Positions 83 through 6,260 of a stretch of 6,260 nt of DNA are shown in pieces. Origin of the DNA: a virus (Duplodnaviria; Heunggongvirae; Uroviricota; Caudoviricetes); IMG/VR virus record IMGVR_UViG_2737471848_000012, one strand, 5' to 3'. The stretch's first letter is position 1. Every line of letters starts with the position of its first letter. A program made the translations under genes and the position numbers. Under the pieces are notes generated by a model. The model saw only the letters and a program-made list of their open reading frames with translations. It ran no database searches and was not told where the DNA came from.

Positions 83-136
83 CCTGTTTACCTCTTTCTC
101 AGGGAGTTTAGTCTCCAGGATTCCCGGGGCGGTTCA
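1..136 (-). mobile_element. Left terminal region of an IS3-family insertion sequence (IS629/IS1203-like); the element continues beyond the window start
   Basis: Reverse complement of 121-136 is TGAACCGCCCCGGGAA, the TGAACCG-type terminal inverted repeat I recall for IS3-family elements. The orfA start codon lies about 55 bp inside this end. The 3 bp at 137-139 (tcg) could be a target-site duplication, but the other end is not in the window. Confidence 0.75.
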
Positions 137-155
137 TCGCGCCCTCAACAATGAG

Positions 156-295
156 TTTTGTGATGCGGTGCCTGGTGCCTCCAGGTGACGTTAACCAGTT
201 AACAATTAACGCCGGATACAGAGAATCCACCCATAACACTGTTTTTGGTTTTAACTGTTCCGCGTGCGCTTAGCCGCATTCACCGCATCACAAAA
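156..295. repeat. 15-bp perfect inverted repeat (156-170 TTTTGTGATGCGGTG; 281-295 CACCGCATCACAAAA) bracketing a 110-bp segment
   Basis: Direct read: the two 15-mers are exact reverse complements. The bracketed segment contains the palindrome CCTGG-N5-CCAGG (171-185) and two GTTAAC sites (190-195, 198-203). Confidence 0.6.
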
Positions 296-303
296 TTCAC
301 TTT

Positions 304-361
304 AAAAAGGGCGGCAGAGCAGTCACGGAGTAAAACTGATACCGCCAAACGTCACCAGAAA
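304..361 (-). ncRNA. dicF: DicF small regulatory RNA (Hfq-dependent, inhibits ftsZ translation), with its intrinsic terminator
   Basis: Reverse complement of 309-361 reads TTTCTGGTGACGTTTGGCGGTATCAGTTTTACTCCGTGACTGCTCTGCCGCCC, followed by TTTTT (reverse complement of 304-308). This matches my recollection of the 53-nt E. coli DicF sequence and its GC-stem plus U-tract terminator. It lies downstream of the three small genes, as in the Qin ydfABC-dicF-dicB operon. Confidence 0.75.
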
Positions 362-1554: not shown

Positions 1555-2031
1555 TTAAGTTCCTGTCTTGGTGATGTTCTGGCTTTTCCGTTTTGATTCT
1601 TGATTTTTCAGATAGTTAGCTACCTTCATTTCCATTGCGGCAATGTAGGCGCGAACGTCATGATCAACCCAACTAGGCTCCGTAGCATTTCCAGATAAGA
1701 GGAAAGCCACAATTGCTCTTTTTTCATCAGAGGCGGCTTGATAAAGGCTGTTTATGTCTAAAAGTTCACTTTTTGTATCTGAAGTGGATGGGGTTGGTAT
1801 GGGGTATTCGTTAAGCCCCCAATGCTCTGGACCAACCACATCAGAAAAGAAACGCCATAGTTCTGGAAGTTTGTCTTTACTTATCGAACCTTTCTTAATC
1901 CAGTCATGGATTGATGGTGGTTGGACTTTGAAATGACGTGCGATTTCCGCCTTTGATTTGACGGCTCCTGATGCAATTTTTTTGTTAATGGCCTGCTCTA
2001 TCGCTCGGCCTAAGTCTTTACCACTAAGCAT
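1555..2031 (-). CDS. racR: RacR-like prophage repressor (158 aa, N-terminal HTH)
   Basis: The 158-aa ORF (MLSGKDLGRAIEQAINKK...) has an N-terminal HTH-like segment (SKAEIARHFKVQPPSIHDWIKKGSI). It is divergent from the Cro-like ydaS and sits between two operator-bearing promoters. Length and sequence match my recollection of K-12 RacR. RBS AGGAGA is the reverse complement of 2042-2047. Confidence 0.7.
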   Translation of the reverse strand: MLSGKDLGRAIEQAINKKIASGAVKSKAEIARHFKVQPPSIHDWIKKGSISKDKLPELWRFFSDVVGPEHWGLNEYPIPTPSTSDTKSELLDINSLYQAASDEKRAIVAFLLSGNATEPSWVDHDVRAYIAAMEMKVANYLKNQESKRKSQNITKTGT

Positions 2032-2888: not shown

Positions 2889-2910
2889 AAGCACGGTGTT
2901 CGGGGGTTTT

Positions 2911-3873
2911 ATGAGCAGCAAGCTTCATGGTCTTGTCTGGGAAGGGTGCGCCTTCACCGGCATGATCTTATCCAGGGTGGCGGTTATGGCCCGTCTTGCA
3001 GACTACAGCAATGACGAGGGCGTGTCATGGCCTGCCATTGAAACTATCCGGCGTCAGATCGGTGCAAGAAGTGAATCCACAGTGAAATCGGCTATTGCAG
3101 AACTGGCGAAAGAGGGCTGGCTGACGAAGGAAGAGCGTAAGGTCGGTGGGCGTAATGTAAGCAATATCTATCGGCTTAATGTGGAAAAACTCGAAGCAGC
3201 TGCTGCGGCGGCGCGTGAGTCATATAAACCGAAAAGAAAAATTAGCCCGGCAAAAAATGACCCGTTAACAGTTGACCCGTCAAATATTGCCCCCTCAACG
3301 GTTGACCCGTCAAATTTTGATGGATCAACTGTTGATAACAAACTGCCGATTAGGGGGGCGATGATTGACCCCGATCCGTCAGTATTAAAACCTGATCCGT
3401 CAGATAAAAGATCTTCTTGTCCGGACGCTTCGCAACCGGACCCGCAGACGGCTGAACAGAATTTTTTAACCCGACACCCTGACGCGGTTGTGTTCAGTGC
3501 GAAAAAACGCCAGTGGGGAAGTCAGGAAGATTTGGTGTGCGCACAGTGGATCTGGGGACGAATCGTGAGTCTTTACGAGCAGGCGGCCAGCGATGATGGC
3601 GAGATCACGAGACCGAAAGAACCCAACTGGACTGCATGGGCCAATGACGTGCGGACAATGCGGATGCTGGATGGCAGAACTCACAGACAAATTTGTGAAA
3701 TGTTTGGGCGTCTCCAGCGGGATTCGTTCTGGGTAAAAAACATCATGAGTCCGGCAAAACTCCGGGAAAAATGGGATGAACTGGTTATCCGCCTGGGGCG
3801 TTCGCCCGCGCAGCGTTGCGTGAATCACATTTCTGAACCGGACACTGAAATACCGCCGGGATTCAGGGGGTGA
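2911..3873 (+). CDS. ydaU: Replication initiator, YdaU-like (lambda O analogue): N-terminal winged-helix DNA-binding domain, repeat-rich linker encoded by the iterons, C-terminal domain
   Basis: ATG at 2911 with GGGGG 4 nt upstream. The ORF-track start at 2896 is a GTG. The N-terminus (ILSRVAVMARLADYSNDEGVSWPAIETIRRQIGARSESTVKSAIAELAKEGWL) resembles phage replication-initiator winged-helix domains. The linker has repeats TVDPSN x2 and DPS-rich segments. It sits directly upstream of the DnaC-like gene. Confidence 0.55.
   Translation: MSSKLHGLVWEGCAFTGMILSRVAVMARLADYSNDEGVSWPAIETIRRQIGARSESTVKSAIAELAKEGWLTKEERKVGGRNVSNIYRLNVEKLEAAAAAARESYKPKRKISPAKNDPLTVDPSNIAPSTVDPSNFDGSTVDNKLPIRGAMIDPDPSVLKPDPSDKRSSCPDASQPDPQTAEQNFLTRHPDAVVFSAKKRQWGSQEDLVCAQWIWGRIVSLYEQAASDDGEITRPKEPNWTAWANDVRTMRMLDGRTHRQICEMFGRLQRDSFWVKNIMSPAKLREKWDELVIRLGRSPAQRCVNHISEPDTEIPPGFRG
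3258..3413. repeat. Iteron array and GATC cluster inside ydaU-like gene: candidate prophage replication origin
   Basis: Perfect 15-mer GTTGACCCGTCAAAT at 3271-3285 and 3301-3315 (30-bp phasing), each with internal dyad TTGAC-CC-GTCAA. Partial copies at 3258-3270 and 3331-3339. A second pair, GATCCGTCAG, at 3373-3382 and 3394-3403 (21-bp phasing). Four GATC sites fall within 91 bp (3323-3413). An AT-rich tract GAATTTTTTAAC follows at 3459-3470. Confidence 0.6.
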
Positions 3874-3879
3874 CGTGTC

Positions 3880-4620
3880 ATGAAAAACATTGCGGCAGTT
3901 GGGGTTCTTGAACGTATTCGCAGACTTGCACCACAGGGGGCGGTTCCACCGTACCGGACGGTGGAGGAGTGGCGGGAATGGCAACTTGCTGAAGGACGAA
4001 AACGCAGCGAGGAGATTAACCGCCTGAATCATCAGGTGCGGGTTGAAAAAATCCTGAACCGTGCGGGCATCCAGCCGCTTCACAGGAAGTGCTCATTCGG
4101 GAACTACCGGGTGCAGAACGACGGTCAGCGCCATGCTCTGAGCCAGGCGAAATCCATTGCCGATGAATTGATGACCGGATGTACAAACTTCGTGTTCAGC
4201 GGTAAACCTGGTACCGGTAAAAATCACCTGGCAGCAGCGATTGGCAATCGGCTGATGGCGAAGGGGAGAAGCGTGATTATCGTCACCGTGTCCGATGTCA
4301 TGAGCGTGTTGCATGACGGCTACGACAACGGCCAGTCCGGGGAAAAATTTTTACAGGAGCTTTGTGGAGTTGACCTTCTGGTCCTTGATGAAATTGGCAT
4401 GCAGCGGGATACGCGCAACGAGCAGGTCACGCTGAACCAGATAGTCGACCGCAGAACGGCTTCGATGCGTAGTGTCGGAATGCTGACGAACCTGAATCAC
4501 GCAGCGATGAGCACACTCCTCGGAGATCGGGTGATGGACCGTATGACCATGAATGGTGGTCGTTGGGTGAATTTTAACTGGGAGAGCTGGCGGTCAAACG
4601 TTGGACGTCAGGGTATGTGA
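3880..4620 (+). CDS. ydaV: DnaC-like AAA+ helicase loader (YdaV-like, 246 aa)
   Basis: Walker A FVFSGKPGTGKNHLAAAIG and Walker B LLVLDEIG, with overall resemblance to E. coli DnaC. Length equals K-12 YdaV (246 aa). RBS GGGGGTGA upstream; the start follows the ydaU stop by 6 nt. Confidence 0.7.
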   Translation: MKNIAAVGVLERIRRLAPQGAVPPYRTVEEWREWQLAEGRKRSEEINRLNHQVRVEKILNRAGIQPLHRKCSFGNYRVQNDGQRHALSQAKSIADELMTGCTNFVFSGKPGTGKNHLAAAIGNRLMAKGRSVIIVTVSDVMSVLHDGYDNGQSGEKFLQELCGVDLLVLDEIGMQRDTRNEQVTLNQIVDRRTASMRSVGMLTNLNHAAMSTLLGDRVMDRMTMNGGRWVNFNWESWRSNVGRQGM

Positions 4621-4645
4621 GAATTTTTGACGAGGTAAATTTTCG

Positions 4646-5395
4646 ATGGAAACTGTATTGCATGCACTGAAAGCGATGGGAAAAGCCAATTCTGTTGAAC
4701 TGGCGGCGCGGCTTGATATCAGCCGTGAAGAAGTTCTTAACGAACTGTGGGAACTCAAAAAAAATGGCGTTGTTGATAAAACGGGTCACACCTGGTTTCT
4801 GGCTGTCGAAGGTGAAGCCGGGGTAACCGAAGGGCAGGCACTACAACCTGAAGCGCCGGATGTGGTAACCGAAGAGGTCGCTCCAAAAGTTACCGCAGAC
4901 ATGATGGTTGAGTTTATCGGTCAGGATGGTGCTAAAACGTGTGAGGAACTGGCGGGTAAGTTCGGCGTCAGTACTCGCAAGGTTGCTTCCACGCTGGCGG
5001 TGGTAACCGCAACGGGGCGGCTGGCACGCGTTAATCAGAACGGTAAATTTCGTTACTGCATGTCGGGGGGTAATTTACCAGCAGATCCGAAAGCCGCGCC
5101 GGTAACGAAAAATGATGGTAAGGCCTTTCCTCAGCCAGCAGGTGCTGCGTTACCAGTCCGGGAAGCCGCAACACAGGAAGAAATTAAAACAGAAACTGTG
5201 GCGGACATTGTGCAGCCGTTGCTATCGTTTACCGAAACGCAAGCAGATGAGCTGATTTTTCCGTCCCTGCGCAGGGCGAAAAGTGATGTTCAGAAGTGGG
5301 AGCGAGTCTGCGCCGCGCTGCGGGAGCTGAACAAGCACCGGGATATTGTTCGACAGATTACTGATTCTTCCCGCCGTGTTGTATCGGAAAAGTGA
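4646..5395 (+). CDS. 249-aa prophage protein with two predicted winged-helix-like domains joined by Pro/Ala/Glu-rich linkers (DUF1627/YdaW-like?); function unknown
   Basis: ATG at 4646 with RBS GAGGTAA. HTH-like segments SVELAARLDISREEVLNELWELKKNGVV and CEELAGKFGVSTRKVASTLAVVTATGRLARV. Family assignment is tentative and from memory. Confidence 0.5.
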   Translation: METVLHALKAMGKANSVELAARLDISREEVLNELWELKKNGVVDKTGHTWFLAVEGEAGVTEGQALQPEAPDVVTEEVAPKVTADMMVEFIGQDGAKTCEELAGKFGVSTRKVASTLAVVTATGRLARVNQNGKFRYCMSGGNLPADPKAAPVTKNDGKAFPQPAGAALPVREAATQEEIKTETVADIVQPLLSFTETQADELIFPSLRRAKSDVQKWERVCAALRELNKHRDIVRQITDSSRRVVSEK

Positions 5396-5410
5396 TAGCC
5401 GGAGGCGCTT

Positions 5411-5806
5411 ATGGCGAAACCTTTTACACACGAACAGCGTGAAGAACTGAAGGCCCGAATTATCGGGCTGGTACGCAAAAATGAACGCATGACGATATCA
5501 CAACTGGAGAGAGCGACGGGAGCAGGCTGGCATTCAGTCAGACGTTGCCTTGTGGATGTACTGGCTTGTGGCGATTTATACATGCCCGGTAAATACGGTG
5601 TTTTTACATCAGAACAGGTGTATCGCGTATGGCGTAAGGCAGCGGAGAAAGCAACCGACCAGACATTGATTCGAAAGTTACCAGACGGAGAAATACGCCG
5701 CTACGACAGACAACAGAACATAATCTGTGGCGAGTGCCGGAAGAGTGAAGTTATGCTGCGTGTACTGGCGTTCTATCAGGGCAATTTTCAGGAGGCGGTA
5801 CTGTGA
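5411..5806 (+). CDS. 131-aa hypothetical prophage protein with a possible N-terminal HTH (TISQLERATGAGWHSVRRCL) and four Cys residues
   Basis: ATG at 5411 with RBS GGAGG 6 nt upstream. Tightly packed after the preceding gene in the same operon. No recognised family. Confidence 0.5.
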   Translation: MAKPFTHEQREELKARIIGLVRKNERMTISQLERATGAGWHSVRRCLVDVLACGDLYMPGKYGVFTSEQVYRVWRKAAEKATDQTLIRKLPDGEIRRYDRQQNIICGECRKSEVMLRVLAFYQGNFQEAVL

Positions 5807-5862
5807 GTGAATTAGCTATCAGGCTTCAATTGTCGCTGGCATTCGCATCAAAGGAGAATGAG

Positions 5863-6260
5863 ATGACCACTTTTACAAAAGAGCAGTTAATCAGTCATGT
5901 TAGTGAAAATGTAAAGGCGATGAAATTTGCAGTAAAACAGACAGTATTCAAAAATTCTCTCGAGGCAATTGAGTTGGATTTAGCACTGGCCCTTGTTGCT
6001 CAGGCTTCGCTGGAAGCAGAGCCCGTGCTTTATATGAATCGATTTACCGGAAAGACATTCTCACTGGAAGAGCAACCCGGTGCTGATAAGGAACCGGAAA
6101 TATACGTGCCGCTATATGCTGCCCCGCCAGACAGCGCCGCCATGCTTCAGGCTGGAAACTTTCGGGAAAATAAGGGTTCGTCAACCAATAATTTTCGGGA
6201 AATCTCGGAAACGTCAACCAACTATCCGGTAACTCCGGATGGTTGGATAAGCTGTAGTGA
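5863..6260 (+). CDS. Hypothetical prophage protein, 5' portion (at least 132 aa, open to the window end)
   Basis: ATG at 5863 with RBS AAGGAGAA (5851-5858). Hand translation MTTFTKEQLISHVSENVKAMKFAVKQTVFK... has no stop to the window edge. Absent from the ORF track because it is unterminated. Confidence 0.5.
   Translation, partial: MTTFTKEQLISHVSENVKAMKFAVKQTVFKNSLEAIELDLALALVAQASLEAEPVLYMNRFTGKTFSLEEQPGADKEPEIYVPLYAAPPDSAAMLQAGNFRENKGSSTNNFREISETSTNYPVTPDGWISCS

Follow-up and report, generated by a model that had tools for sequence, protein, structure and literature searches.

What are the three open reading frames (ORFs) that follow the helicase-loader gene in this lambdoid prophage DNA, do they form a single group, and what could they contribute to the phage? 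An earlier note, made from the sequence alone, had described them as ORFs of unknown function lying downstream of the replication genes. Here we describe the families to which the three ORFs belong, the genes with which they are linked in other genomes, and the role that these relationships suggest.

The locus and its three ORFs

The window, by which we mean the whole stretch of 6,260 nt that was analysed, has its three ORFs at the right-hand end. Bases 4600-6260 (1661 nt) have a 100% identical counterpart in E. coli OkiPb01684 (NZ_AP042519). Among 5426 complete E. coli genomes, 3494, or about two thirds, match this region in part, and 376 cover at least 80% of stretch 4600-6260. The annotated context in NZ_AP042519 is a Rac-type lambdoid prophage in decay, as seen from a frameshifted integrase, an IS3 inside dicB and a TerB gene with an internal stop. 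The rexAB genes are absent from this prophage carrying ORF1-ORF3. The genes of the window are as follows.

309-360, minus strand: DicF RNA
Upstream part of the window, minus strand: ydfC, ydfB and a DUF1391 gene
1555-2031, minus strand: racR
Ending at 2479: ydaS/cro-like gene
2463-2888: ydaT-like gene
2896-3873: O-like initiator, with iteron-like repeats at 3265-3403
3880-4620, plus strand: DnaC-like helicase loader, ydaV-type (NCBIfam PRK12377, 500 bits; DnaC equivalog, E 1.8e-92)
4646-5395, plus strand: ORF1, 249 aa, DUF1627 (Pfam PF07789, phrog_630)
5411-5806, plus strand: ORF2, 131 aa, DUF977 (Pfam PF06163, phrog_142)
5863-6260 and past the window end, plus strand: ORF3, first 132 codons of a 194-aa DUF551 protein (Pfam PF04448)

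The DnaC-like loader also gives matches to Pfam IstB_IS21 and Bac_DnaA, and is annotated as "ATP-binding protein" in NZ_AP042519. Gaps of 25 nt, 15 nt and 56 nt separate the loader gene from ORF1, ORF1 from ORF2 and ORF2 from ORF3, and the three ORFs are preceded by the Shine-Dalgarno-like sequences GAGG, GGAGG and AAGGAG, respectively. Because neither promoter-like nor terminator-like sites were found on the plus strand within 3800-6260, co-transcription of ORF1-ORF3 with the replication genes is plausible. This operon-like array after the DnaC-like gene agrees with the co-transcription after ydaV that the earlier note had proposed. The lengths of 249 aa and 131 aa given there were exact, and the third ORF does run past the window end, being open from ATG 5863 to 6260. 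In a search for RNA elements in 4500-6260, only one sub-threshold speF match was obtained (19 bits vs 37), and tandem repeats were not found in the same range. Short repeats look like chance, with the exception of a 33-nt duplication within ORF3.

All three ORFs are supported as coding sequences by Pfam scores far over threshold (302, 243 and 75 bits for ORF1, ORF2 and ORF3). Comparison with diverged relatives gave dN/dS values of 0.26-0.54 for ORF1 and 0.24-0.32 for ORF2; differences in ORF3 were too few for a dN/dS judgement. The exact proteins are present on 207 (ORF1), about 1000 (ORF2) and 418 (ORF3) contigs of a large protein collection, where they carry DUF names only, and each is identical to a RefSeq protein. 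The view that the ORFs were unassignable from their sequence thus has to be given up, as they fall in DUF1627, DUF977 and DUF551. Profile search and structure prediction, which had been suggested as checks, gave a consistent result: Pfam, PHROG and NCBI all lead to the same families, and AlphaFold2 (AF2) predicts winged helices.

ORF1 and YdaW of E. coli K-12

ORF1 matched the entire profile of Pfam DUF1627 (PF07789, positions 1-155/155) with 302.3 bits, clearing the gathering threshold of 28.1 bits (E 7.7e-91), and also matched phrog_630 (E 4e-123). DUF1627 is a small family, with 155 clusters (50% identity) at E <=0.001 among 1.84 billion representatives, and the named matches come from Escherichia, Salmonella, Citrobacter, Enterobacter, Cronobacter and similar genera. 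An alignment of 35 relatives, reaching down to 19% identity, revealed a common architecture consisting of a first winged helix (WH1), a variable linker, a second winged helix (WH2), a Pro/Ala-rich linker and a basic C-terminal helix. The second linker ends in an IPxFT...DDLxxPS motif. ORF1 displays this family-wide architecture both in the alignment and in an AF2 model, which was built on a 55-sequence alignment and predicts the following domains.

4646-4810, plus strand: WH1, aa 1-55 (pLDDT about 91, order of elements H-E-H-H-E-E; acidic, pI 5.6)
4883-5068, plus strand: WH2, aa 80-141 (pLDDT about 87; basic, pI 9.5)
5261-5392, plus strand: C-terminal basic helices, aa 206-248 (helices 206-230 and 232-248, pLDDT about 85; pI 10.8)

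The two winged-helix-like domains noticed previously in the 249-aa protein are thus recovered in the model (residues 1-55 and 80-140, pLDDT about 90), and both linkers have a pLDDT below 50. Residues L34 and W50 of WH1 are invariant across the DUF1627 family, and the EIRRTK..L..LE..R motif of the C-terminal helix is kept in distant relatives. When the ORF1 model was compared with the PDB using Foldseek, only proteins with tandem or single winged helices were found (best E 2.5e-4), and no functional lead was obtained. The Foldseek matches of the ORF1 and ORF2 models were ScpB, ESCRT-II, SelB, IclR, GntR and Zalpha. The predicted structures of both proteins consist of winged helices and helices only, with no catalytic fold.

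The Zalpha domains of ADAR1, ZBP1 and PKZ share the fold of WH2 and were its best sequence-profile matches in the PDB (E 1e-5 to 3e-3). The residues of Zalpha in contact with Z-DNA are Asn173, Tyr177 and Trp195 (ADAR1 numbering). In WH2, the positions of Asn173 and Tyr177 are occupied by Ala114 and Ala118, and that of Trp195 falls at Phe135/Arg136. A Zalpha identity was rejected on these grounds, and the resemblance is, judging from the aligned residues, that of a generic winged helix.

Concerning the particular ORF1 allele in the window, 7 aa (21 nt) are missing where the C-terminal helix begins, in comparison with P0002. The allele also carries the replacements P140S and P193L at two sites where at least 90% of the relatives have proline, and L193 takes the place of the proline in the IPxFT motif. 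Given this deletion and the two proline replacements in a decaying prophage, the allele may be impaired.

The E. coli K-12 Rac prophage encodes YdaW (b1361, 186 aa), whose gene, like ORF1, is situated directly after a ydaV-type gene. ORF1 displays 58% identity to residues 1-154 of YdaW, a range that covers both winged helices. Past residue 154, the YdaW sequence is unrelated, and the motif of the second linker and the C-terminal helices, which ORF1 has, are missing. The next gene after ydaW in K-12 Rac is rzpR, which fits an internal deletion of Rac. The YdaW of K-12 is thus a DUF1627 protein in truncated form, and ORF1 is the intact form.

ORF2, lambda Ren and linkage to the loader gene

ORF2 matched Pfam DUF977 (PF06163) over profile positions 1-134/134, with 243.1 bits against a gathering threshold of 22.1 bits (E 9.4e-73). 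It also matched PHROG 142, named "Ren-like exclusion protein", over positions 1-115/116 (E 1.7e-43). Lambda Ren (ren, NP_040633, 96 aa; from NC_001416) matched the same PHROG over positions 11-110/116 (E 1.6e-41), and the two proteins are both full-length members of this family. In a profile search, lambda Ren did not match Pfam DUF977. A direct BLASTP comparison of ORF2 with lambda Ren gave 29% identity over 87 aa (E 2e-6), and in the C-terminal motif of this pairwise alignment ECRKSEVMLRVLAFY stands opposite ECRQSAAMKRVLAVY.

5717-5782, plus strand: ORF2 C-terminal motif N-I-I-C-x-E-C-R-x-S-x-x-M-x-R-V-L-A-F-Y, common to lambda Ren (ECRQSAAMKRVLAVY) and aligned with Ren residues 66-92

Among 101 sequences, the invariant columns were N103, I105, C106, E108, S112, M115, R117, L119, F121 and G124. 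The AF2 model of ORF2 (mean pLDDT 80) has a winged helix at residues 7-65 with pLDDT above 90, bearing out the possible HTH that had been seen in the 131-aa protein, and a helix at 68-82. Beyond residue 82 there is a low-confidence linker, followed by a C-terminal hairpin and helix. Foldseek searches of the model against the PDB and BFVD identified generic winged helices only, with best E values of 0.012 and 0.0085, respectively.

Lambda Ren and ORF2 both possess an N-terminal winged helix and a C-terminal ECRxSxxMxRVLAxY motif, both are basic (pI 9.5 against 9.9), and in the early rightward operon both are encoded downstream of the gene for the helicase loader. ORF2 differs in that it is longer by 35 residues, which make up an extra helix and linker, and in that it has a CxxC where lambda Ren has a single Cys at the same place. 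There are also differences in the surroundings: lambda ren overlaps the end of P, whereas ORF2 is set apart from the loader gene by ORF1, and the loader is DnaC-like at this locus whereas it is P in lambda. As far as profiles and the shared motif can tell, DUF977 is the Ren family. The comparison with ren that the earlier note had made from gene position alone thus extends to the protein itself. The same note had regarded membership in well-characterised lambdoid families as the outcome that would remove these genes from accessory status. Profile searches do place them in known families, but function has been characterised only in the genetics of lambda Ren. The "LygF"/DUF977 proteins of Rac-SA53 and other lambdoid phages are members of ORF2's family, and their genes likewise come after a ydaW-type gene. 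We set the name "LygF" aside as a functional clue, for in the annotations examined it is a mere label with no functional content.

A relationship to Ren may also exist for ORF1. Its WH2 matched phrog_142 over aa 86-137 (E 4.6e-6), and hhalign of WH2 against DUF977 gave an E value of 1.8e-4 with a probability of 48%. Reciprocally, short Ren-like proteins matched phrog_630 at positions 78-136. This weak but reciprocal similarity between WH2 and the winged helix of Ren suggests that ORF1 may be an enlarged relative of Ren.

Gene linkage was surveyed around close DUF1627 genes at 80 IMG/VR loci. Immediately 5' of DUF1627, a DnaC-like loader gene was present in 40/80 and a lambda-P-like loader gene in 36/80; the P-like identity was confirmed in L055 by matches to Pfam Phage_lambda_P and phrog_109. 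The gene next after DUF1627 was Ren-like in 74/78 close loci, whereas an ORF3-like gene followed in 13/72 only. Distant loci, in which DUF1627 is 24-32% identical, came from Enterobacter, Citrobacter, Cronobacter, Leclercia and Pseudescherichia. There, DUF1627 starts 16-20 nt past the loader gene, the initiator gene varies, and a Ren-like gene, of phrog_142 or of the shorter phrog_2391, comes next in 7/9. Because a Ren-like gene follows DUF1627 so regularly at close and distant loci alike, and an ORF3-like gene so much less often, ORF1 and ORF2 make up a conserved pair anchored at the replication module's 3' end, no matter which of the unrelated DnaC- or P-type loaders is present, and ORF3 is the first gene of a mosaic nin-equivalent region outside the pair. 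The single candidate accessory region proposed before is thus divided into a pair tied to the loader and one gene, ORF3, in a variable region. It is this loader-linked context of DUF1627 that is new; the gene families themselves were already catalogued and are common.

The alleles of ORF2 group at identities of at least 95%, of about 62% and of about 50%. These classes were found with both loader types, and ORF1 is about 86% identical beside either type. The mixing of ORF2 classes across DnaC-like and P-like contexts rules out loader-specific co-adaptation of the ORF2 alleles. Together with the constancy of ORF1 beside either loader, it makes specific contact with the loader protein less likely.

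ORF1 and ORF2 lie in one reading frame, and two database proteins are fusions of both. Production of a fusion by programmed read-through was discounted, both for the tandem stops TGA TAG in the window and for the distant loci, where the two genes do not share a frame and their spacing varies.

ORF3 opens at ATG 5863, has no stop before the window end, and encodes a protein of 194 aa in NZ_AP042519 (L001:10264-10848). The full-length protein matched Pfam DUF551 (PF04448) at aa 127-190 with 75.3 bits (gathering threshold 22 bits, E 6.8e-21); this domain is almost wholly past the window end, with about 6 residues inside. The reading frame is open from 5749 and contains an alternative in-frame start, GTG 5803, which overlaps the stop of ORF2 and is preceded by AGGAGG. 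DUF551 has been described as a portable domain, seen in YfdS and an Ea22 variant (PMC10834534). The acidic ORF3 protein (pI 4.5) shares this small domain with YfdS of CPS-53 and with the C-terminal domain of Stx-phage Ea22 variant V2. Its N-terminal part differs from these proteins, and a match to the Ead/Ea22 coiled coil was not found.

A Ren-like role and its alternatives

With family memberships, domain architectures and gene linkage established, we considered what the ORF1-ORF2 pair may do. The best guide is lambda ren, a non-essential gene (PMC10695390). A preprint (bioRxiv 10.1101/2021.04.19.439022) reports that Rex excludes ren mutants, whose growth on Rex+ lysogens is poor, that suppressors map in O and P, and that Ren interacts with RexA and RexB in two-hybrid assays. 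Its authors, citing Weigel & Seitz 2006, state that ren is carried by all initiator + helicase-loader modules. Resistance to Rex exclusion and interaction with RexA/RexB are known for lambda Ren only, and would apply to ORF2 by extension.

By analogy, we propose that the ORF1-ORF2 pair, an appendage of the initiator-plus-loader module with ORF3 outside, acts in the manner of Ren, shielding replication from exclusion. We would put the probability of this reading at roughly one half. ORF1 and ORF2 would be expressed as part of the early rightward operon, along with the replication genes, and the pair would represent a dispensable, small winged-helix factor that is co-produced with the replication proteins. 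Its task would be to keep phage replication running in cells where exclusion or abortive infection operates, for example through the RexAB of a resident prophage. Protection could be brought about by binding to the exclusion proteins, or else to the replication-initiation complex. ORF1 would be an enlarged form, in which a Ren-like WH2 is combined with an acidic WH1, a conserved short motif in a disordered linker and a basic C-terminal helix. Such a build would be less fitting for an enzyme than for an adaptor between proteins or to DNA. The action of K-12 ydaW against a retron toxin in an overexpression screen, described below, also counts in favour of this reading. Against it stand the low identity of ORF2 to Ren (29%), the absence of rexAB from this prophage, and the signs that neither protein makes a specific contact with the loader.

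Winged helix-turn-helix domains such as those modelled in ORF1 and ORF2 could also belong to sequence-specific transcription regulators of the MarR/ArsR type, tuning prophage or host genes, and YdaW has been catalogued as a predicted E. coli transcription factor of MarR type (PMC4797297, PMC9308461). Weak, sub-threshold matches of the two proteins to HTH_11, ArsR, MntR, MarR and IclR-type proteins point the same way, but no HTH family surpassed its Pfam/NCBIfam cut-off (HTH_11, 24.4 vs 25; ArsR/SmtB, 25 vs 55). WH2, the C-terminus of ORF1 and ORF2 are basic, but WH1 is acidic, and the AF2 model lacks the dimerisation helices of MarR and has long disordered linkers between its domains. A repeated operator-like sequence was not found in or beside the genes. 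Moreover, the fixed place after two unrelated loader types points to the replication module, and we consider it unlikely that the two proteins are regulators of this kind.

Another explanation would make ORF1 an anti-defence protein that directly neutralises abortive-infection toxins, for example RcaT, independently of replication, with ORF2 as a second such inhibitor. Early expression of the genes and the ability of Ren to counter Rex exclusion are compatible with this. The experimental basis is an overexpression screen in which, according to another preprint (bioRxiv 10.1101/2020.06.22.160242), K-12 ydaW was among the prophage genes that block toxicity of the retron-Sen2 toxin RcaT. This is one screen hit; the repressor dicC was a further blocker, and 11 blockers were revalidated, among which ydaW may or may not be included. 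The YdaW of K-12 is also truncated and has no C-terminal domain. Since dicC was a hit as well, the effect of ydaW on RcaT may be indirect. In addition, anti-defence genes usually vary in position, whereas DUF1627 is fixed beside the loader gene. Direct toxin inhibition as the primary role therefore appears quite doubtful to us.

A defence or superinfection-exclusion cassette guarding the lysogen might be imagined from the location in the accessory-rich early right region and from PHROG, which files family 142 under "moron, auxiliary metabolic gene and host takeover". We rejected it as highly improbable because PADLOC-DB 2.0 yielded weak matches at best, namely to HTH portions of Csa3/CasR/CARF (E 1e-5 or worse) and to mad1 (E 0.005), with none for ORF3. 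Nor did the Pfam and AF2 analyses reveal an enzymatic or membrane domain. Moreover, ORF1-ORF3 have no promoter of their own and would not be expressed in the lysogen, where the repressor silences the operon. The earlier note had likewise seen no hallmarks of defence, and nuclease or ATPase signatures were not found in our analysis either.

The Ren-like reading can be taken one step further. The DUF1627 and Ren-like proteins might together constitute a dedicated counter-exclusion module that shields DnaB-loading replication complexes of the DnaC or P type from those abortive-infection systems by which phage replication is sensed or attacked, with full-length YdaW serving as an adaptor that binds toxins or sensors, for example RexA/RexB or retron RcaT, directly. 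We regard this extension as speculative and rather improbable, but if true, it would provide the first mechanism for Ren, 45 years past its genetic description.

In themselves the genes are of modest importance, being already catalogued and very common in E. coli. The analysis tidies the picture in that YdaW of K-12 appears as a truncated DUF1627 protein, DUF977 as the Ren family, and the two families as a stable pair travelling with the loader gene. An experimental lead already exists in the block of a retron toxin by ydaW in the overexpression screen. The function of Ren, and the reason for its retention by initiator + loader modules, are now testable in Rac-type and Stx prophages.

The ORF1-ORF2 junction and the ORF1 allele

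ORF1, encoding a DUF1627 protein, and the following ORF2, encoding a DUF977 protein of the lambda Ren family, are in a common reading frame, with the sequence TGA TAG CCG GAG GCG CTT (5393-5413) between them. Of the 67 ORF1-ORF2 junctions from IMG/VR loci, 54 have only one stop codon, after which come five sense codons that mostly encode LPEAL. In two database proteins, P0068 (403 aa) and P0156 (204 aa), the stop is replaced, resulting in DUF1627-DUF977 fusions. Because the DUF1627 gene and the next gene are out of frame at distant loci, the common frame is probably due to shared ancestry rather than programmed read-through.

The ORF1 allele carries a 21-nt in-frame deletion (window 5261-5275) relative to most relatives, which removes the residues ANLALRR between LRRA repeats. 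In addition, Ser140 and Leu193 replace prolines present in at least 90% of relatives. Despite the deletion and these substitutions, the exact allele was found on 207 contigs. We also compared ORF1 with YdaW of the E. coli K-12 Rac prophage.

L003 (K-12 Rac locus) 5753-6313: ydaW (b1361)

The match is limited to residues 1-154 of YdaW, and the sequences diverge beyond this point. K-12 YdaW is a truncated DUF1627 protein without the conserved C-terminal helix. This reference-strain protein is sometimes catalogued as a MarR-type transcription factor (PMC4797297, PMC9308461).

Start site and internal repeat of ORF3

An in-frame GTG at 5803, overlapping the ORF2 stop codon (GTGA) and preceded 7 nt upstream by AGGAGG (region 5790-5865), is an alternative start for the DUF551 gene ORF3 and would add 20 codons. 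RefSeq places the start at ATG 5863, the residue at which PHROG alignments also begin. ORF3 further contains a duplication.

6157-6221: imperfect 33-nt tandem duplication, 75% identity

This generates an 11-residue repeat, NFRENKGSSTN/NFREISETSTN, immediately ahead of the DUF551 domain.

State of the prophage

Two features were identified at the left end.

309-360, minus strand: DicF antisense sRNA (Rfam RF00039; full-length match scoring 76.7 bits, where the gathering score is 48)
~135-239, minus strand: dicB remnant

DicF is flanked by the truncated dicB remnant and ydfC. Within 1-239, an IS3-family element is inserted in dicB, and its end forms the start of the window. In the same prophage (positions 1-4640 of L001, the locus of an identical genome), the integrase is frameshifted and a TerB gene has an internal stop. 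Taken together with the IS3 insertion, these lesions indicate that the prophage is defective.

Repeats within the initiator gene

The O-like initiator gene (2896-3873) harbours a repeat cluster.

3265-3403: repeat cluster, inside the initiator gene

The palindromic 12-mer TYAACNGTTGAY occurs three times, at 3265, 3295 and 3325, with a spacing of exactly 30 bp. When one mismatch was permitted, six matches to TYAACNGTTGAY were obtained over both strands, against 0.13 expected by chance. Downstream of this array are two copies of GACCCGTCAAAT and two of CCYGATCCGTCAG 21 bp apart. The cluster looks like an iteron-type replication origin, an arrangement that would be the same as in lambda O, where an iteron-type origin likewise lies inside the initiator gene.
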